From Lama guanicoe (lineage: Eukaryota): a stretch of 64,000 nucleotides of DNA. The stretch covers positions 5,047,770 to 5,111,769 of the forward strand of contig MU054466.1 of NCBI GenBank assembly GCA_013239625.1, given 5' to 3'. The translations under genes were made by a program, and so were the position numbers. Shown in pieces: positions 1 through 11,773 of this stretch (positions within the stretch are counted from its first letter, which is position 1; every line of letters starts with the position of its first letter). A model generated the notes under the pieces. That model had not been told where the DNA came from and did no database searches. It saw nothing but the letters and a program-made list of their open reading frames with translations.

Positions 1-122
1 GGAAGCCTTCCAGGACCATCCTGAAGAGGTCCATTTCCCTATAACACCTTCCTCCCATAGACTTGGCTACTCCTGTTTCAAAGCAATTTTATACTTATTA
101 ATGAATATTTGAGGTGGGGAGG

Positions 123-160
<38 letters not shown>

Positions 161-225
161 ACACACCTCTCCCTGCCCCTTGCACAGTGCCTGGCATGTG
201 GTAAACAGTAAACACTTGTTGAAGA
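1..225 (+). mobile_element. L2 3' fragment interrupted by (CA)n
   Basis: ggaagccttcc...gcacagtgcctggcatgtggtaaacagtaaacacttgttgaa resembles the L2 3' terminus. Confidence 0.5.
125..158. repeat. (CA)n microsatellite
   Basis: ~17 perfect CA units. Confidence 0.95.
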
Positions 226-400
226 GCTGGGCCTGGTTTGCTACTAGTTGGGGCCATTTGCAGAATTGGCGGCAGTGTTCCGTCTGGCCACCAGGGGGGG
301 CAGTGGTGCAGTTTTGGGCCGCCCAGGGTAGGGTCACCAGCAAATGGAAAGGCCCCTTCCACCACCCTTGTCTGACTTTAAGGACCTCCTTTTGTGCCAG

Positions 401-508
401 AAAACGGACATCACGGAGGCTGCCCTGGGGGTACTGAGACAGAGTCAGGTGAAGATGGTGTGGATAGTGGGCCGACGTGGACCCCTGCAAGTGGCCTTCA
501 CTATTAAG
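401..508 (+). CDS. FDXR: Ferredoxin (adrenodoxin) reductase, internal exon (human exon 7 equivalent)
   Basis: cag|AAAACG...ATTAAG|gt; encodes [36 protein letters not shown], including the VGRRGP NADP-binding region of adrenodoxin reductase. Confidence 0.96.
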
Positions 509-752
509 GTGCTGGGGCCTGAGGGAGAGGGGCCAGGGTCCCAAGTAGATGGTCTGCCCTTAGGAGGTGTGGCAGGGCAGAGCTGCCTGTGGTGGAAGAG
601 AGGGAGCCAGGCAGGGCCCCCCAAGGTCCAGTGCCTTCTGTGGTGGTGGGTGGTACTGGTATCTCCCACCTAGGCTGGGTTCTGGGGTGGGCTGAGGCTG
701 GACAGTGCTCTGGGCCTGATCTCTTCCCCCACTCCCCACCCCCACCCCCAAG

Positions 753-837
753 GAGCTCCGGGAGATGATTCAGTTACCAGGAACTCGGCCCATATTGGAT
801 CCTGCGGATTTCTTGGGCCTCCAGGACAGAATCAAGG
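753..837 (+). CDS. FDXR: FDXR exon (exon 8 equivalent)
   Basis: aag|GAGCTC...AAGG|gtgag; [28 protein letters not shown]; 85 nt, phase fits neighbouring exons. Confidence 0.95.
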
Positions 838-970
838 GTGAGGGGCCCTGGCCTGGCCCCCCAGCTCACTAGAGAGGGGATGGTCTAGGTCAGAGAGGGC
901 TTGGGGGAGGGTGTTCGGGGAGAAGGCTGGAACCCAAAGACAGCCCTGAGATGTTCTGTGTTGCTGACAG

Positions 971-1170
971 AGGTCCCTCGCCCGAGGAAGCGGCTGACGG
1001 AATTGCTGCTTCGAACAGCCACAGAGAAGCCAGGGGTGGAGGAGGCTGCCCGCCAGGCATCGGCCTCCCGTGCCTGGGGCCTCCGCTTTTTCCGAAGTCC
1101 GCAGCAGGTGCTGCCCTCGGCAGATGGGAGGCAGGTGGCAGGCATCCGCCTGGCTGTCACCAGACTGGAA
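971..1170 (+). CDS. FDXR: FDXR exon (exon 9 equivalent)
   Basis: cag|AGGTCC...CTGGAA|gtgagt; [21 protein letters not shown]...[13 protein letters not shown]...VTRLE. Confidence 0.96.
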
Positions 1171-1253
1171 GTGAGTCTCCTGTTAGCCAAAGACACCCCC
1201 ATTCCTAAGTGTTCCCACCCACAGCCTGGTATTGCCCACACTGTCCCCAGCAG

Positions 1254-1425
1254 GGTGTCGGTGAGGCCACCCGGGCAGTGCCCACTGGAGATGTGGAGGA
1301 CCTCCCTTGTGGGCTAGTGCTAAGCAGCATTGGGTATAAGAGCCGCCCCATCGATCCCAGTGTGCCCTTCGACCCCAAACTTGGCATCATCCCCAATGTG
1401 GACGGCCGGGTCATGAATGTGCCAG
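1254..1425 (+). CDS. FDXR: FDXR exon (exon 10 equivalent)
   Basis: cagcag|GGTGTC...CCAG|gtgag; [53 protein letters not shown]. Confidence 0.95.
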
Positions 1426-2005
1426 GTGAGAGGGTGCAGTGGGGGACAGGGAAGCTGGTGTCTCCTGGGGTCATTCCCATTCATTCATTCATCTGGTGAC
1501 AGGTACTGAGAGCCAGGCCATGTCCCAGGACCCCATCCTGGGACTTACTCTAGCTGAGATGCCCACACCTATGCCTGGTTATTAAGTCATTCAATTTACT
1601 GAGGCCTGCTCTGAGCTAGGCCTAGTTCTGGGATTGGAGATTAGGCAGCAGCCCCTGTAATCAGCAAGCTTGCAGTCTGATTGTGTATCCACATACCAGT
1701 CTAGTCATTAATTCATTCAGTTAATGTTTACTAAGAGCCTGCTGAAGCAAGGTGGGCAGGACTCAGCTCCTACAGGGAGGTACTGATCTACAGGGACACT
1801 GAGGGGTAAGGGAGGATGGCATGGTAAAAATAGGTTGGGAACAGTTGAGAGCAGTGGGCCAGCAGCCACAGTGGGCCCACTGACGGATGCTGGAAGGCCA
1901 TGGGGTCAATGGATGCATGCACATGCAAGTTTGTATGGGGGCTGAGGCTTGCCAAGTGTGTCCAGCCCACTCCCCATTATTTACACCTTTGTTACCCATT
2001 CCCAG

Positions 2006-2176
2006 GCCTCTACTGCAGTGGCTGGGTGAAGCGAGGACCCACAGGCGTCATCACTACCACCATGACTGACAGTTTCCTCACAAGCCAGATTCTGCTGCAG
2101 GACCTGAAGGCCGGGCAGCTTCCGTCTGGTCCCAGGCCTGGCTATGCAGCCATCAAGGCCCTCCTCAGCAGCCGAG
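2006..2176 (+). CDS. FDXR: FDXR exon (exon 11 equivalent)
   Basis: cag|GCCTCT...CGAG|gt; [20 protein letters not shown], the FAD-binding motif. Confidence 0.96.
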
Positions 2177-2307
2177 GTCTGGGCCCCATGTGAGCTCCAA
2201 GGAGGGGGGGCGGTATCCCTGGACCTTCCCACTGTTTGGGAGTTGGGTGTTCGGGGCTAGAGTGGAGGAGGCGGTGGAGGCAGTGACTCGTCTTCCCTCT
2301 GCCTCAG

Positions 2308-2438
2308 GGGTCTGGCCTGTCTCTTTCTCGGACTGGGAGAAGCTGGATGCTGAAGAGGTGTCCCGGGGCCAGGGCACTGGGAAGCCCAGGGAGAAGCTGC
2401 TGGATCCTCAGGAGATGCTGCGGCTGCTGGGGCACTGA
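2308..2438 (+). CDS. FDXR: FDXR terminal coding exon
   Basis: cag|GGGTC...; [43 protein letters not shown], the C-terminus of adrenodoxin reductase. Confidence 0.96.
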
Positions 2439-2736
2439 GCCCAGATCCTGGCCCGGCACGGAGAGGAGGAGTCCTGTGCAGGGGAGAGGGACTGAGCTGG
2501 ACTCCGCACCACAGCTGCATCATTTGCTGGTCCTGGCATGGGGCCTTGGCTGCCTCTTTTCCAGGGGGTTCTGAGCACTTCCTTATGCCAGAAGGTCACT
2601 CTTGCCAGTGTGGATTTGACTCTCAGCAAGGAGATAACCTTAGTTAGAGATGGGTGCCAGGTGCAGGCTGATCTTCCTCCCTCCTGCCTCTCTCCTGCTG
2701 GACTGTGGAGGGTCACCAGGTTGGGAATAGGCTGGA

Positions 2737-2742
2737 AATAAA
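2737..2742 (+). terminator. FDXR: FDXR polyadenylation signal AATAAA
   Basis: First AATAAA, ~300 nt after the stop; followed by GU-rich gtggttgatgtg at ~2763. Confidence 0.8.
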
Positions 2743-2807
2743 ACACCTGCAACCCAGGATCAGTGGTTGATGTGCGACTTCTTTAGGGGCCCCGGGTCAC
2801 CTTCCAG

Positions 2808-3289: not shown

Positions 3290-3370
3290 TCACTTTATAG
3301 ACGGATGGAGTCTCGAAATTAACTGGCCCAAGGTCACACACCCAGTGAGCTTCGGCCTCGAACCCAGGGC
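3290..3370 (-). mobile_element. MIR fragment
   Basis: ttaactggcccaaggtcacacacccagtgag...ctcgaacccagg is the reverse complement of the MIR core. Confidence 0.55.
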
Positions 3371-3429
3371 TCCGGGCAGCCCGTTTTTTCCGAGGCTGCA
3401 CTTGGCCCCGAGTGTCGGGTCTGGGGACA

Positions 3430-4330
3430 CAGCCCTAGAGACGGGAGGAGGGACCCAGGCGCCTGGCGCACTGGCGGGCAAGGAGGGGCTGGAGCAGCGC
3501 GGGTGCTGGCGGCGGGGGGGGCCGGCCGGGGCGGGCCGGGGCGGGGCGGAGGCGGCAGGCCCCGGTGGGGCGGGCCCGCGCGGGCGGCGGCGAGCGCTTC
3601 GCCACAGCCGGCTGGCTGGCTGGCCCCGGGAGCCGGAGGCGCGGCGTGCAGCGCAGCCCGGGACGGAGCCGGGCGCCTAGCGGGCCACGGGAGGGGCGCG
3701 GGGCGCGGGGGCGGGCCCGGCCCAGCCCGCCAGGCCGCGCCACGGGCACTGGCCCCGCGGCGCCCGGGCTCAGGCGCCCGCCGAGCTAGGACAGAGCGCG
3801 CCAGCGCGCGGAGCCGAGGCGGCGGGACATGCTCCGCGCGGGAGGCGGCCGGCGCGGGCTCTGGGCGCGGGCGCAGCGCCCCTTCCCCTCGGTGAGTGGC
3901 AGGCGGCGAGCCGGGGGCGCCAACTTGGCCAACTTGGGGCTGGGCTCAGGCGACGCGCGGGCAAGGACGACGGAGACAGAGGCGGGACACTGGGGAGAGT
4001 CTGGCTGGCGCAGGGAGCCCGAGGAGGGGGGCGGTCGGGGGACCGAGACTCTCGGGGTCCCGGCCTGGGGTTTGGACCGGGGCGGCCGGAGAGGAGGTGA
4101 GGAAGAGAGGCCCAGGTGACAGGCGCGCGGCGGACGCGAGGGAAGGACGCGGGCGAGGCGCCCAAGACATTCGTCTCCCGGGTCGCCGAGCCCTCCAGCT
4201 CCTTCTCCCGGCGCCGCGGCACCGCAGGGGAGGGGGCGGTGCGGGACGATGGAGTCTGGGCTGCCGGCCCTGCAACTGTTGCTGCTGGAACCCGGGCGGG
4301 GTGGGGAGGGAGCGGGGCTGTGAGCTGGGG
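3430..4330. promoter_or_regulatory. GRIN2C: CpG island / GRIN2C promoter with clustered GC boxes
   Basis: Very GC- and CpG-dense; multiple GGGGCGGG Sp/KLF boxes at 3520-3575 and 3690-3720; no TATA box seen; boundaries approximate. Confidence 0.85.
3600..3891 (+). other. GRIN2C: Candidate GRIN2C upstream first exon (5' boundary uncertain)
   Basis: Lies in the CpG island just downstream of the GC boxes; ends at a strong donor TCG|GTGAGT (3892). Confidence 0.6.
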
Positions 4331-5412
4331 CCCTGGCTGGGTTCGCCAGAGAGAAGGGAGCTGGAGAGGACATGGGGCAGAGAGGACGAAGAGGGGCTGT
4401 CGGTGGTTCCAGAAGCCCAGCCCCCTGCTCCCGGAGGTTTGCTGAGCACCTACTGCGCACATCTGCTTTCACACCCCTGCCCTTTCACCCGCCGTGAGTC
4501 CCCCCAGGTCCTCCCCTCCTAGCTCTTCCTTTTCTCCGCCGCCCCGCATAACGCTCCCTCCTCTGACCTCAGGGAATCAGCCTGGGCTTCACCCGTTGGT
4601 GGGATCTTCCCAAACGCTGACCTCACTCCCAGGCGGACCCAGGCTCCGAGGGTGGGAAAGGACGGGGTGGGGGGCAAAGAGGACCCGGGACAGCCGTGAG
4701 CCCCTGTGCTCTGGGCCCTGGCTGCTGCACCAGCGGGTTGCTCTGGTCTGCTGGGTCTTCCATCAGGATCCCCGACGGTGGGGAAGGGAAACCCCGAGTA
4801 TCCTGCTGCGGAAGGCCGTTCGTGCCTAGGCCTAAGCGCGCAGGGCCAGTGCCAAGAGAAGTCAAAGGCAGCCAGCAGCTAAAAAATCCCCAAGGGTGCA
4901 TACCACGACACATCCAGAAGTCCTGCTGGGTGAGTGAAGGGGGAATTCTCACTGGACCCTGAGCTCACTCCACTGGCCCTAGCCCTGCTCACCCGATGGG
5001 ACTTCTGGCTCGGTCCCCAGCCCTCCGATGGTGACACTGCCCTGGCTGGGTCCTGACCCTGGCCGTGGTGGAAACTGAGGGGAGGAACTTGGAGGGGACC
5101 AAGTGGGCTCTGTTTCGGAGCCCGTCTAGTTTCTGGCTGTGCAAATAAGTTGGGAGCCTGCTTCGAATAGATTCCGTACTAGAAACTCGAATAGCATCGT
5201 TAAAGGGATCGGGTAAGCCGGGAACCAAACTCCCGACTCCTGGGTTCGCCCTAGGGCAGGCCCGGGGTGGTAACCTCCCACAGCCCCGCCTGCCAGGCGA
5301 GCTCCGCAACCCCTACCCGCGGGGCTTGAGGTGGCGACCAACTTGGGGCAGTGGGGAAGGGGACCTAGAAGCCGGAACGCCCGCAGAGGGTAGCCGCGAG
5401 GCGAGGGGCGCG

Positions 5413-5546
5413 NNNNNNNNNNNNNNNNNNNNNNNNNNNNNNNNNNNNNNNNNNNNNNNNNNNNNNNNNNNNNNNNNNNNNNNNNNNNNNNNNNNNNNNN
5501 NNNNNNNNNNNNNNNNNNNNNNNNNNNNNNNNNNNNNNNNNNNNNN
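5413..5546. other. Assembly gap (134 N)
   Basis: Run of n. Confidence 0.99.
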
Positions 5547-5636
5547 CCCCTCCTCCCTCGGGGGGAGCCTGATGCCACGTTCCCTATGAATTATTTATCG
5601 CTGGCCTAAAAATACCCCGAACTTCACAGGCCAAGT
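5547..5636 (+). other. GRIN2C: GRIN2C alternative 5' non-coding exon (5' part lost in N gap)
   Basis: GATGCCACGTTCCCTATGAATTATTTATCG..CCTAAAAATACCCCGAACTTCACAG resembles the human NR2C cDNA leader as I recall it; ends at donor AAGT|GTAAGA; lies in a second CpG-rich patch. Confidence 0.7.
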
Positions 5637-6989
5637 GTAAGAGATTCCCCCGGGGGGTCCGGGGCGGAATCAGCGGGGAGGGGGGAGTTAGTCTTGGAGG
5701 AGGGAGACCTCGGTGCCCGCGCCAGTAGGGGCGTGATGGACAGGTGGTCGTCTCCCCTGACGCCTGGGTTCGGGTTTTAGCTCGGCAAAAGGGAGGGAGG
5801 GAAACCCGACGGCAAAGCAGAGGCCGCTCACTCGGAGGGAAGTGGATCCAGAGGAGCCGCGGAGCCTGGGTCCCTCGGCTCCCCGGAGGTGGCGCGGCTG
5901 GTGGGTGGGGCCGACTCCTGGGACCGAGGCTCCTGGCCTGGGAGAGAGGATATCCATCAGACGTCTGGAGTGCGAGTCTGTGTGCATGTCCGTGTGTGGG
6001 AGCCTGCCTGAGACTGGGGGAGCACATGGAGATGCTCAGGCGGTTCAAGGTGATGCTGAGTGTCCCGGAAGACTGACCACTGTCACCCTTCCCCTGGATC
6101 CTTTTTGGGGGTCCGTCTATTCATCAAATATTAACAACCCGTTTGTGAAACGGGTGGACCCCAAGTGGGTGGGCAGAGATCTCTAAGACAATAGTCCAGT
6201 GTGGGTAAGGGGCATCTTGGGCTGGCAAATACCTGCCACGGGGCAAAATGAGGGAAACAGTGGCAGAGGAGCTCCCCAACCCAGGAGAAGGGGGGGTGTG
6301 GGGTGGGGGGAAGAAAGGCAACCAGCCTAGAGCCAGACCCAGACCTTCTGTCTTGTCACCCATGTTTCCAGAGCCTGGAAGGACTAAGGTAGTTGCGCTG
6401 TGGGAGGAGGATTGAGGTTGGGCTCTGGAAATTCTGGAATTTTTTGGGTAGACAAGACAGAGGTGGTGGGAAGAGGGCATTCTAGCCTGAGGGAACAGCA
6501 GAGCAAAAGTCTAGAGGCGAGGACAGTAGGGTCATCCCTAGGTGGCAGGAGTGTGGGGTCCACGGAGGGGAGGACAGTTGGTTGGGGTCAGGGTGTGTGG
6601 GGCTCTGTCCATGAAACCCAGTGTCTGGACTTAATTTGTGGGCACCAGGGAGCAGCTGTGCTGTTCGAGGAGGGGTGCAGTGGCCAGACAAATGTTTCAG
6701 GCCAGTGGGGCCTCCCCTCCTGCCTTGTGTGGGAGGCTGGATGCCATGTGGTGCTAAGATTCTGGAGTCTACATCTCTTTGAATCTGCCTGTTGCTATTT
6801 TAAATTCACAGACTTGCCTGATTGGGACCCCTCCCTCCAGAGGCATCCTGAGATCAGTTTCTGTGAGAGGCAAGACCTGCCTCAACTTTCCTCCTCAACT
6901 CCAGTCCTGGAGGCACCTTCCAATCAGAGAGAGTCTCTGGGGACAGCGCCCCCTTGGAGCTGAGGGAGGCCCTGGGTCCTTCATCTAGA

Positions 6990-7275
6990 GCCACGTTGTC
7001 CAAAAGAAACCAAGTGAGAGCTCATGTAGACACATTAGAAAAAGTAAAAAGAAAGGTGAAATGAATTCTAAGGCTATATTGTGTTTAGCTCTGTGTATCT
7101 TAAATGTTCTTTTGACATGTAATCCATAAAAAATATTAATGAGATGTTTTCTTTTTTGAATACTAAGTTATCAATAGCCAGTGTGTATTTGACATGACAT
7201 GCCTCAATTCCGACGAGACACATCTGAGTGCCTGATAGTCACACGTGACTGGAGGCTGCTGTGCTGGGCAGCAGA
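6990..7275. mobile_element. MER33-like hAT-Charlie DNA transposon remnant
   Basis: ttgtccaaaagaaa...cacattagaaaaagtaaaaagaaaggtgaaat...attaatgagatg...gtcacacgtgactggaggctgctgtgctgggcagca. Confidence 0.7.
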
Positions 7276-7824
7276 GGTCTGGACCTCAGAGCTGGGAGGC
7301 AGAGGCGGGGGAAGCTTCGAGCTTCCCAGAGGGTGGAGAACCTACAGGGATGGGCAGGGATGAGCACAGAGAGGCCTTGCCAAGGGCAGACAAGCACGGG
7401 AGTGCCCTTTTCAGGTGTAATTTGAAATCTCTGGTTGGAGGTAGCTGCAGGCAAGCACGCTTAGGCTCACACACGACTCACGCATGTCTCCAGGTTGACA
7501 TTCAAAGTCAGTGTACTAAGAAATCATACACAGGGGGAATTTCAAGGGCACAAAAATGAGTACAGTATTCTCTCCCCTGCCAAAAATCCTGTCTTCTTAT
7601 CCTGAATTAAACCAGGCCCAGCCTGGTCACACTTTGACTCTTCCCTGTTCAAAAGTTTTGTCGGGGATGTGATGGAGATGGAGAGAGGGCAAAGCTGTGG
7701 CCGGTGGCCAGCTGGGAAGGAGAACTGCATCCATGGGTACCACTCACCGGTGTGGCTATCAGTCGTAGTCCAAAGCAATGATGCTCATTTAGCAGGGATA
7801 CACGTCAGGCCCTTGGGTTACGGA

Positions 7825-7854
7825 AAACCAAACCAAACCAAACCAAACCAAACC
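7825..7854. repeat. (AAACC)n pentanucleotide repeat
   Basis: ~6 units. Confidence 0.9.
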
Positions 7855-8093
7855 CTCATATCAGTGATGGCCTAGGGAGGCAGCTCATGTGTGAGATACC
7901 TTGGGGATTCAGGTGACTCTGAGCCCTGAACAAATCAACTGTGTCACATGCCTGCTGTAGATGAGCTGCTACTTATTGAGGCAACGGGGGTAGGGTAGGG
8001 ATGTCCAGTGCCCAGGAAGAGCCAGGCAGCCTTATTGCAGAGCAGGGTTCTCGGAGATGTTAGGTTCAGTTTAGGATGGAGAAGGGTGCACAT

Positions 8094-8121
8094 TGTGTGT
8101 GTGTGTATGTGTGTGTGTGTG
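8094..8121. repeat. (TG)n microsatellite
   Basis: Direct reading, one interruption. Confidence 0.9.
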
Positions 8122-8199
8122 TTACAAGAGCTGCCTGCCTCCCCCTGGCTGTGGGGCTGTCACCTGTAGGATAAGGATGCTGATTGTGAAATAGGTCCT

Positions 8200-8325
8200 A
8201 TGATTGTTGCAGGCAAGAAAACATGGCTCAGAGAGGCTAAGCAACTTCCCAAGATCACACAGTTAGTACGTGGCAGAACTGGGACTTGAACTCAAGTCTC
8301 TCCAACTCAAATCCATGCACTTGGC
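8200..8325 (-). mobile_element. MIR
   Basis: ggctcagagaggctaagcaacttcccaagatcacacagttagt...gggacttgaactcaagtct. Confidence 0.75.
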
Positions 8326-8697
8326 ACCAGATTAGCATTTGCTGTGTACCTTCCTGAGGCAGAACCCAGATGGATGAGTTTCCAAACATGATGTTCAACC
8401 ATAAAATGGAAGGAATGAGCACCTAGCCCGGCATGTTCTTCCCAGCCCCCGCCCTCTGGGCTGCGCTTGGACGCTCAGCTAACCTCTGTCTCTTTCTCTT
8501 TGTCTGTCTGTGTCTGTCTGTCTCCCCCTCTCTCTGCCTCTCTTTGTGGTGGGAGGTTCCCCCTCTTCTCTTTCATCCTCTGGATGTGTGTCCCTCTGAC
8601 TCTGGCCTTTGTCTCCTCTCTGCCACTCCTTCCTCTCTGTCCCTCTGCCTCCCTCCCCATGCCTATCCTGGTCTCTCCACAGGACCCTCCGGTGGAC

Positions 8698-9096
8698 ATG
8701 GGTGGGGCCCTGGGGCCAGCCTTGCTACTCACCTCACTCCTCGGTGCCTGTGCAGGGCTGGGCCCTGGGCAGGGCGAGCAGGCTGTGACAGTGGCCGTGG
8801 TGTTTGGCAGCTTGGGGCCATCGCAGGCCCAGGCCCGTATCCGCCTCACCCCCCAGAGCTTCCTGGACCTGCCCCTGGAGATCCAACCACTCACTGTGGG
8901 GGTCAACAACACCAACCCCAGTAGTCTTCTCACCCAGATCTGTGGGCTCCTGGGTGCTGCCCGCGTCCATGGCATCATCTTTGAGGACAACGTCGGCACT
9001 GAGGCCGTGGCCCAGATCCTGGACTTCATCTCCTCCCAGACCCACGTGCCTATCCTCAGCATCAGTGGGGGCTCTGCCGTGGTCCTCACCCCTAAG
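8698..9096 (+). CDS. GRIN2C: GluN2C (NMDA receptor subunit 2C) first coding exon; acceptor at 8683
   Basis: gtggacATGG; [22 protein letters not shown] signal peptide, then ATD ...[44 protein letters not shown]|gt. Confidence 0.97.
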
Positions 9097-9949
9097 GTGC
9101 CTGTTCAAAATCATGTCCCCTCATCCCTGGAGCCTGGAGCCGGGCTGGGGCTGGGGGAGTGGGGCTGAGTCTGGGCCAGGGAGACACTCAGGTCCTGGGA
9201 AGCTGGGACTGGGTGGGATCAGCAAGGAGGTGGGGGCTGAGGGAGACATGGGTGAGGGAGGAGAAGGCTGTGGGAATGATGTTCCCATGTTTTAGAAGAG
9301 AAACTTTCTGGGCTGCTTTGACATTCATGTCTGGACAAGGGCTGGGCAAACTCACCCCTGGTTCTGGGGCAACCCTGGCTCACCTTCTTCCTGTTTCTCT
9401 GGCCTCCCTTGGTCAGGCTCTGGATCCAGGGGCAAAGGGCCAGGCTGGGATCTGATGTAGTTGACCGGCAGGGGAGAGCATCCTGGGACAGGTCACTGCC
9501 CAAGGCCTGGGGGCGGCAGGCCCTCGCAGAGCTTGCCGTCCTGTGGGGAGAAAGTTCCAAACACATTGCTGCCGTCACAGCTGGGATAAGCATCCTGAAG
9601 GAAGATCACAGGATGCCATGCCACAAGGGAGTCTAACGGGACCCCCTGTGGGTCGGTGGTTGATCAGAGAAAGGATCTTAAGAAATATATCGAAGCTGAG
9701 ACCTGGAAGGTGAGGGAGGGTTGACAAGGTATGTGTGTGTACAGAGTTGGGGTGAGGGTTCCAGGTAGAGGGGGCAGGTGGTGTGAATGACCAGAGGTGG
9801 GAAGTAGCTTGGAGTTTCTGAGGGACAGAGAGAAGCCTGAAGAAGGTGGTGGGGTCCCACCCACATAGGAAAATATTTGGGTTTTACCCTAAGTAACTGG
9901 GGAGCTGAGGAAGGTGTTGAGGGGAGAGACTGATCTGATTTGCATTTCT

Positions 9950-10450
9950 TTTATGATTTTTTTGTTGTAGGGAATTTTGAGCAGACACAAAAGTAGACAA
10001 TTATAATCCCATGTACCCCTATTCACCCCAGGCTGAGCATGCCTCATCCTTACCCCCACCCACTTCCCCCTTGTCTGTATTATTTTGAAGCAAAGCCCAG
10101 ACATATTTATATCATCCATAAATACTTCAGTTCACATCTCTAGATGATAGGGCTTTAAAAATAATAAAACCACCATACATCATCACGTCTAAAAAAATAA
10201 TAAAAATTCCTTAATCTCATAAAATACCCAGGCAGTGCTCAAATTTTCCCCATTGTCTCATAAATGTCATAAATGTTTATTTTTAAGTCTGTTGGCTTGA
10301 ATCAGGAACCAAATTAGGTTCCCACATGGCGATTGGTTGACAGGACTTTTGAGTCTCAGTCTCTAGACTCCTTCTCCATCTCTTTTTTCCCCTTGCTGTT
10401 TGTTTGTTGAAGGAACTGGGTTACTTGTCCTATAGGGTTTTCTTGGAGTT
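9950..10450 (-). mobile_element. Old L1 (L1MC-like) 3' fragment
   Basis: AT-rich block with cacaaaagtaga..., tattttgaagcaaagcccagacat, aatacttcag and ttgttgaaggaactgggtta motifs typical of L1MC 3' ends. Confidence 0.6.
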
Positions 10451-11174: not shown

Positions 11175-11773
11175 GAGCCGGGCTCCGCCTTCCTGCAGCT
11201 GGGCGTGTCCCTGGAGCAGCAGCTGCAGGTGCTGTTCAAGGTGCTGGAGGAGTACGACTGGAGCGCGTTCGCCGTGATCACCAGCCTGCACCCGGGCCAC
11301 GCGCTCTTCCTCGAGGGCGTGCGCGCCGTCGCCGACGCCAGCTACCTGGGCTGGCGGCTGCTGGACGTGCTCACGCTGGAGCTGGGCCCCGGCGGGACGC
11401 GCGCGCGCACCCAGCGCCTGCTGCGCCAGCTCGACGCCCCCGTGCTGGTGGCCTACTGCTCCCGCGAGGAGGCGGAGGTGCTCTTCGCCGAGGCGGCGCA
11501 GGCCGGCCTGGTGGGACCCGGGCACGTGTGGCTAGTGCCCAACCTGGCGCTGGGTAGCACCGACACGCCGCCTGCCGCCTTCCCCGTGGGCCTCATCAGC
11601 GTCGTCACTGAGAGCTGGCGCCTCAGCCTGCGCCAGAAGGTCCGCGACGGCGTGGCCATCCTGGCCCTGGGCGCCCATGGCTACCGGCGCCAGTATGGCG
11701 CCCTGCCCACCCCGGCTGGGGACTGCCGCGGCCACCCCGGGCGCATCAGCCCTGCCCGGGAGGCCTTCTACAG
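11175..11773 (+). CDS. GRIN2C: GRIN2C coding exon 2 (ATD)
   Basis: cag|GAGCCG...TACAG|gt; [32 protein letters not shown]...REAFYR; CpG-rich. Confidence 0.97.

Follow-up and report, generated by a model that had tools for sequence, protein, structure and literature searches.

Related leaders and first exons

The 43-residue signal peptide of shrew-1/AJAP1 secretes a reporter when complete, while its isolated N-terminal half goes to mitochondria (PMC2447879). It is the closest tested case for the N-terminus described here, and it indicates that a mitochondrial look of the N-terminal part is compatible with ER targeting of the complete signal (PMC2447879). The extended N-terminus of camelid GluN2C resembles NtraC/shrew-1 in being longer than 40 residues and in having a basic N-terminal part, a Pro-rich, putative turn region and then a standard hydrophobic signal (PMC2447879). 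Unlike that of shrew-1, the N-terminal part in GluN2C is optional (it has its own exon, and a second AUG follows) and is patchy among lineages.

Two in-frame starts have been described for rat GluN2C (RefSeq NP_036707.3, 1250 aa; Ishii 1993 as cited in PMC8257547), and there too an in-frame upstream AUG lengthens the signal peptide. The 13 residues added in rat come from just upstream of the exon-2 acceptor, and not from the first exon considered here, exon a. GluN2D of the same genome (GRIN2D, locus L004) has an Arg/Gly-rich, acid-free stretch of 15 residues, a second Met and then a hydrophobic core; it differs in that this stretch lies in one exon and is part of the canonical protein, and we claim no homology between it and exon a. 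GluN2D is a surface receptor subunit. Human GRIN2C junction (a) likewise uses the most upstream of three donors, goes directly to the same acceptor and shows a skip to exon 3 (PMC8257547), although its exon is described there as 5' UTR. RefSeq predicted isoforms, which are automated predictions, share this exon join and begin with 26 residues that are identical or homologous.

Organisation of the 5' region of camelid GRIN2C

The window, that is the whole stretch of 64,000 nucleotides analysed, carries camelid GRIN2C, exon 2 of which is 99% identical to GluN2C of V. pacos and 98% identical to that of C. bactrianus. The features of its 5' region are as follows.

3567..3828, + strand: CpG-island promoter and leader part of first exon a (GC 0.78-0.85, CpG o/e 0.84-1.01); the 5' limit was set by a duplicated block and not by RNA
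3787..3789, + strand: in-frame TAG, from the sequence
3829..3891, + strand: upstream ATG with the 21 in-frame codons that close exon a, from the sequence and homologous peptides
3892..3893, + strand: phase-0 GT donor of exon a, from the sequence
3982..4096, + strand: downstream stretch that contains a second donor-like site and is homologous to the N-terminus of cetacean X2 models (tblastn of P0008, E 8e-9)
5547..5636, + strand: second candidate 5' exon (3' part visible), by its spacing likely the human 'canonical' exon 1
8683..8697, + strand: 15 nt after the AG acceptor, read DPPVD in the extension, from the sequence
8698..8775, + strand: canonical ATG, with G at both -3 and +4, followed by the hydrophobic ER signal peptide (approximate end)
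8683..9096, + strand: coding exon 2, 414 nt or 138 codons; its omission leaves the frame intact but takes the signal peptide with it
8938..8940, + strand: cryptic phase-0 acceptor within exon 2, with AG before 8938, used by the signal-less C. ferus model X5 (P0130)
11175..11177, + strand: phase-0 start of exon 3, joined directly from exon a in horse, donkey and Rousettus models

The original prediction held that an upstream ATG could give GluN2C a 26-residue extension, and its reading of the letters was confirmed throughout. The 63 nt from the ATG at 3829-3831 to the GT donor at 3892 contain no stop, and the acceptor AG at 8681-8682 is followed by exactly 15 nt before the ATG at 8698. The 26-residue extension is in frame with GluN2C and stop-free in the direct splice form, and the 21-residue exon peptide does contain five Arg and no Asp or Glu. 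The ATG at 3829 is flanked by G at -3 and C at +4. No other ATG is present within 3306-3828, and the in-frame TAG at 3787 makes the ATG at 3829 the first possible in-frame start. Exon a lies inside a CpG island (the CpG o/e range given above extends across 3401-4200), and its leader is very GC-rich and structured.

Window positions 1-2745 hold the 3' exons and poly(A) signal of an FDXR-like gene on the same strand as GRIN2C; the N-terminus of this gene was found elsewhere in the same genome (L009). From the end of this upstream gene to the GRIN2C CpG island is less than 1 kb, and on account of this position and strand its read-through could contribute to the RNA signal over exon a. The second candidate 5' exon has an in-frame stop nine codons before its donor, which limits any GluN2C extension from that exon to at most 14 residues. 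Two short overlapping uORFs (starts 5572 and 5586; 5 and 7 codons) occupy 5572-5609 of this candidate exon. The human middle donor (b) was sought at about 4849, a position that fits on inspection and in its spacing; tblastn with peptides from rodents and marmoset gave no confirmation, and the site was set aside. A search with an RE1/NRSE-like consensus gave no match with fewer than two mismatches, and none in exon a.

Contig C7199 (about 198,085-204,713, minus strand) carries a partial duplicate of the GRIN2C 5' region corresponding to window 3567-10220. The duplicate is 85-91% identical to the window, has a frameshift just after the canonical ATG and has lost both the exon-a ATG and the donor. 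Its uORF stretch (window 5572-5609) is 96% identical, the highest of ten regions compared. Such a duplicate is the probable source of P0115, annotated in V. pacos as an 'uncharacterized protein'. In the canonical signal peptide, residue 18 (window 8749-8751) is Cys, as in V. pacos models, and Trp in nearly all other mammalian models seen. The pyrimidine-rich stretch before the exon-2 acceptor (window 8584-8682) is open in frame in many mammals and appears in annotation as hydrophobic extensions of the N-terminus; it is the source of the rat extension.

Distribution of the extension among gene models

The 26-residue extension of GluN2C is already present in automated annotation: the same residues start RefSeq predicted isoforms of V. 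pacos (XP_072795632.1), C. ferus (XP_032312776-79.1) and C. bactrianus (XP_074199744.1). A homologous exon peptide starts 50 of the 361 proteins collected (47 annotated GluN2C models and three unspliced genomic ORFs), rising to 58 of 376 with eight more pangolin models; these are automated models, and species without the ATG cannot show up, so the count is biased towards carriers. The peptide is 21 residues long in all 50, although the search pattern allowed other lengths. Conservation of the ATG and its frame across orthologues was borne out by gene models of eight orders, namely Artiodactyla, Perissodactyla, Carnivora, Pholidota, Chiroptera, Primates (mouse lemur), Lagomorpha and Rodentia, with camelids, whales, horses, donkey, rhino, carnivores, pangolins, bats, mouse lemur, rabbit, porcupine and guinea pig as carriers.

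The exon-a peptide was not seen among the listed cluster members of anthropoids (15 of 135), ruminants (15 of 56), muroids (15 of 53 and 15 of 38) or pig (8 of 8), where the lack of the extension in a model may only reflect the choice of a different first exon. A newer mouse lemur model, XP_012634201.2 (P0220), is without it. A shorter-protein search for spliced ORFs in assembled reads returned 11 matches, of which three were exon-a genomic read-throughs, eight were intron read-throughs and none was the spliced form. We found no paper in the open-access literature on extension of GluN2C via exon a, and GRIN2C was absent from the 11 of 13 supplementary files of PMC9789052 that were searched. 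Marsupial GluN2C models (P0112, P0113, P0117, P0329, P0336-P0338) start with a different Arg-rich in-frame extension of 39 residues that includes acidic residues, and tblastn of this leader gave no convincing match in the window.

Probable use of exon a as a first exon

In human brain RNA-seq, a new GRIN2C 5' junction from chr17:74861428 to 74855107 had 425 reads, as compared to 132 for the canonical 5' junction and 73 for the third first exon (PMC8257547). Herbrechter et al. 2021 named the 425-read junction the primary UTR isoform and treated its exon as 5' UTR (PMC8257547). Donor 3892 is likely the equivalent of this human donor, because its spacing to the last donor is 1745 nt here and 1684 nt in human, the downstream exon and intron lengths agree, and a skip to exon 3 is common to both. 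Exon a is thus likely the main first exon of GRIN2C. The objection that it might always splice through intermediate exons likely fails, given the direct junction in the models and its likely human equivalent.

Some models do take another route. In those of guinea pig (P0105) and naked mole rat (P0280) exon a is spliced to an intermediate exon, with the frame kept in the former and the ATG frame out of register in the latter. The AUG might therefore be a control element, in frame with exon 2 in one splice form and a repressive uORF when intermediate exons are included, so that splice choice would set GluN2C output. A very GC-rich, structured leader suits such a role, as does an AUG that is invariant among carriers while the peptide varies. 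We nevertheless hold this to be improbable, since all 10 rows with the human donor join exon 2 or later and none joins the other two 5' exons (PMC8257547). No reporter data on the AUG as a control element were found in the open-access literature searched.

Public RNA runs covering part of 3600-4100 numbered 24; the reads of four of these over 3300-3860 gave no contigs in any of the four, a blank that can be false and is evidence neither way. The naked mole rat model extends more than 100 codons upstream through the homologous region, which suggests that transcripts can cover that region. Mouse RibORF tables contain the canonical Grin2c start and at least nine extensions, those listed all starting from GTG or CTG; none of the nine listed lies 78 nt upstream, and the two transcripts used may lack exon a (PMC13396407).

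Another alternative is that the ATG is not used at all. If the principal start sites lie downstream of it or too close to it, exon a would be an ordinary 5' UTR whose conservation serves promoter or splicing elements. It is treated in this manner in the human study (PMC8257547), and gene finders would lengthen an ORF merely because the frame is open. Listed anthropoid, muroid, ruminant and pig models include no carriers, which also suits an unused ATG. Against this stand the position of the ATG as the first AUG in a CpG-island exon with a purine at -3, and the mole rat model, whose upstream run suggests transcript coverage. The ATG is moreover kept in models of eight orders, while the frameshifted camelid duplicate lost it together with the donor. 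At a uniform divergence of 8-10%, an ATG with its open frame would survive about 60% of pairwise comparisons and about 0.1-0.2 over eight branches, which leaves some room for chance retention. On balance we consider an unused ATG rather unlikely.

Conservation of exon a as DNA or as peptide

Compared with the camelid sequence, the exon peptide was on average 82% identical in 17 lineages; the corresponding means were 89% in the signal peptide and 91% in the ATD. Extensions that read through the intron of the GRIN2C locus had a mean identity of only 42% (15 lineages), and this comparison indicates that the end of exon a is constrained. The value of 82% is, however, what is expected for a uniform DNA divergence of 8-10% without selection on the protein. 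The substitutions are also radical: in the 20 lineages position 2 holds L, Q, R, P or H and position 3 holds R, C, G or H. There is free variation at residues 2-4 and 12, Trp at residue 12 being replaced by Ser, Pro, Gly or Arg in 11 of the 20. The AUG is invariant among carriers and the peptide is variable.

The naked mole rat model reads exon a in the +1 frame, with 18 of 22 residues identical, while in-frame identity is 15/21 for porcupine and 16/21 for guinea pig. The mole rat match involves at least four base changes, one at the third position of the ATG frame and three at others, in this one species. Under constraint on the protein, the ATG frame should be preserved and the alternative frame should decay; no such pattern was seen, which favours constraint at the level of DNA. 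The out-of-frame test rests on one species, with P about 0.01-0.2 for an assumed third-position divergence of 0.3-0.15. The end of exon a therefore looks to be conserved as DNA, with the peptide tolerated rather than selected, and an out-of-frame reading as well conserved as the in-frame one is also what an unused ATG would leave. The same mole rat comparison gave 18/22 inside the 21 codons and 13/30 in the 30 codons upstream, no carrier has acidic residues or indels in the exon peptide, and the ATG is gone, along with the donor, from the frameshifted duplicate on C7199; given these observations, there is still room for some constraint on the peptide.

Proposed resemblance of the leader to a mitochondrial presequence

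The original prediction likened the first 21 residues, which begin with MLR, to a mitochondrial targeting peptide. An 'ML' start is present only in camelids and one pangolin genus, and 'MLR' only in camelids. The leader has 3-6 Arg and no Asp or Glu across 20 lineages, while the next five residues carry two Asp. At least five basic and no acidic residues were also encoded by 118 of 1095 (11%) stop-free 63-mers of 80-90% GC in the window and by 27% of stop-free shuffles of the exon. With 11-27% of GC-matched controls alike, a presequence-like composition is near chance. The caution that the extension may be a coincidence was thus justified for its presequence-like make-up, but not for the exon peptide itself, which recurs above chance.

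Each leader of 21 residues contains 3-5 Gly, 2-5 Pro and 2-5 bulky hydrophobic residues. The hydrophobic moment ranged from 0.33 to 0.77 across lineages; the camelid value of 0.58 was reached by 18-30% of controls, and the real FDXR presequence of the same genome scored 0.51. The Tom20 motif (phi-X-X-phi-phi) was absent in 14 of 14 lineages and from the FDXR control as well. Since the FDXR control scores alike, neither the moment nor the motif discriminates. Residues 2 and 12 of the hydrophobic face are not conserved.

In the direct-splice form a dominant ER signal follows the leader, and it is absent only from the exon-2-skipped models. The order of events, with an intact hydrophobic core and SRP acting first, is a stronger argument against mitochondria than the composition scores. 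The strong form of the claim, that full-length extended GluN2C is redirected to mitochondria or retains an uncleaved N-terminus, has in its favour that the first 21 residues are basic and acid-free. It has to contend with an intact ER signal downstream and a linker carrying two Asp, with co-translational recognition by SRP, which is reported to precede (PMC4585086), and with the complete shrew-1 signal, which secretes (PMC2447879). In the passages of PMC7980376 on ultrapure mouse brain mitochondria, none of the NMDA receptor subunits tested was seen: GluN1 and GluN2A were not present, and GluN2C is unmentioned. We judge the strong form to be highly improbable. What stood of the original reading was a real first exon, a direct splice in models and a shared ATG and frame; the mitochondrial targeting was not supported, given the camelid-only 'MLR', near-chance composition, free residue variation and intact ER signal.

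A probable longer signal peptide removed in the ER

The probable explanation, which we favour with some reserve, is that initiation at the upstream AUG lengthens the signal peptide, which would then be removed in the ER so that the mature receptor stays as it is. The hydrophobic core remains intact after the extension (Kyte-Doolittle 11-mer about 2), and a Pro-rich stretch is seen in the sequence at residues 18-24 of the extended N-terminus. The signal would comprise the 26 residues plus the canonical signal, at least 40 residues in all; the canonical signal is the annotated start of most GluN2C models.

Transcription would start upstream of 3829, and a share of ribosomes would initiate at 3829, the rest leaking past C at +4 to the stronger ATG at 8698. 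The leaky scanning invoked by the original prediction fits this context, as every residue 2 found in the 20 lineages is compatible with C at +4. The longer precursor would consist of the Arg/Gly-rich extension and the canonical signal, and both precursor forms would enter the ER. SRP is reported to act ahead of mitochondrial receptors (PMC4585086), and would bind the intact core at about residues 31-44 during translation, before those receptors. Signal peptidase would then cut at the normal site to give an identical mature subunit, so that the different mature proteoform which had also been proposed is unlikely if cleavage occurs at the usual site. An in-frame AUG would cost little because its product is removed, and any effect would fall on the rate of initiation or of ER entry. 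GluN2C appears to tolerate added leaders, of 13 residues in rat and 39 residues in marsupials.

Skipping of exon 2 and a possible role of the leader alone

Exon 2 has 138 codons and both of its neighbours are in phase 0, so that when it is skipped the leader runs in frame into exon 3 and the ER signal is lost. Signal-less in-frame models are present in horse, donkey and Rousettus, where exon a joins exon 3, and in C. ferus, through the cryptic acceptor at 8938. The 21-residue leader could then be a cryptic mitochondrial signal, overridden in the full-length precursor and exposed in the exon-2-skipped isoform. Besides these models, such a role is consistent with the matching human junction from the same donor to exon 3, with 210 reads or 16% of the canonical exon 2-3 junction (PMC8257547), with the shrew-1 N-terminal domain, which alone targets mitochondria (PMC2447879), with the absence of acidic residues in 20 lineages, and with a crude moment score that does not separate the leader from the FDXR presequence. 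Several observations speak against it. The leader is Gly/Pro-rich with few bulky hydrophobic residues and no phi-X-X-phi-phi motif (the FDXR control also has none), its hydrophobic face at residues 2 and 12 is unconserved and its composition is near chance. GluN1 and GluN2A were not in ultrapure brain mitochondria in the passages cited above (PMC7980376), and the human authors listed the skip junction among apparently non-functional variants (PMC8257547). A cryptic signal of this kind is therefore quite improbable. There is an equally slim prospect that, in species keeping the ATG, the leader serves as the sole N-terminal signal of a GluN2C of about 1115 residues and takes it to mitochondria or another non-secretory site. 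Misfolding and degradation of the exon-2-skipped protein would be likelier than targeting.

Implications for GluN2C

If the leader does act alone, splicing would switch an NMDA-receptor subunit between compartments and would provide a direct handle on the disputed mitochondrial NMDA receptor. If instead the favoured explanation of a longer signal peptide removed in the ER is true, the effect would be modest. A species difference is possible in that case, the models listed including no human, mouse or cattle carrier. GluN2C of many mammals would have an additional start and a lengthened signal peptide; these are missing from standard cDNA constructs and may tune receptor supply.
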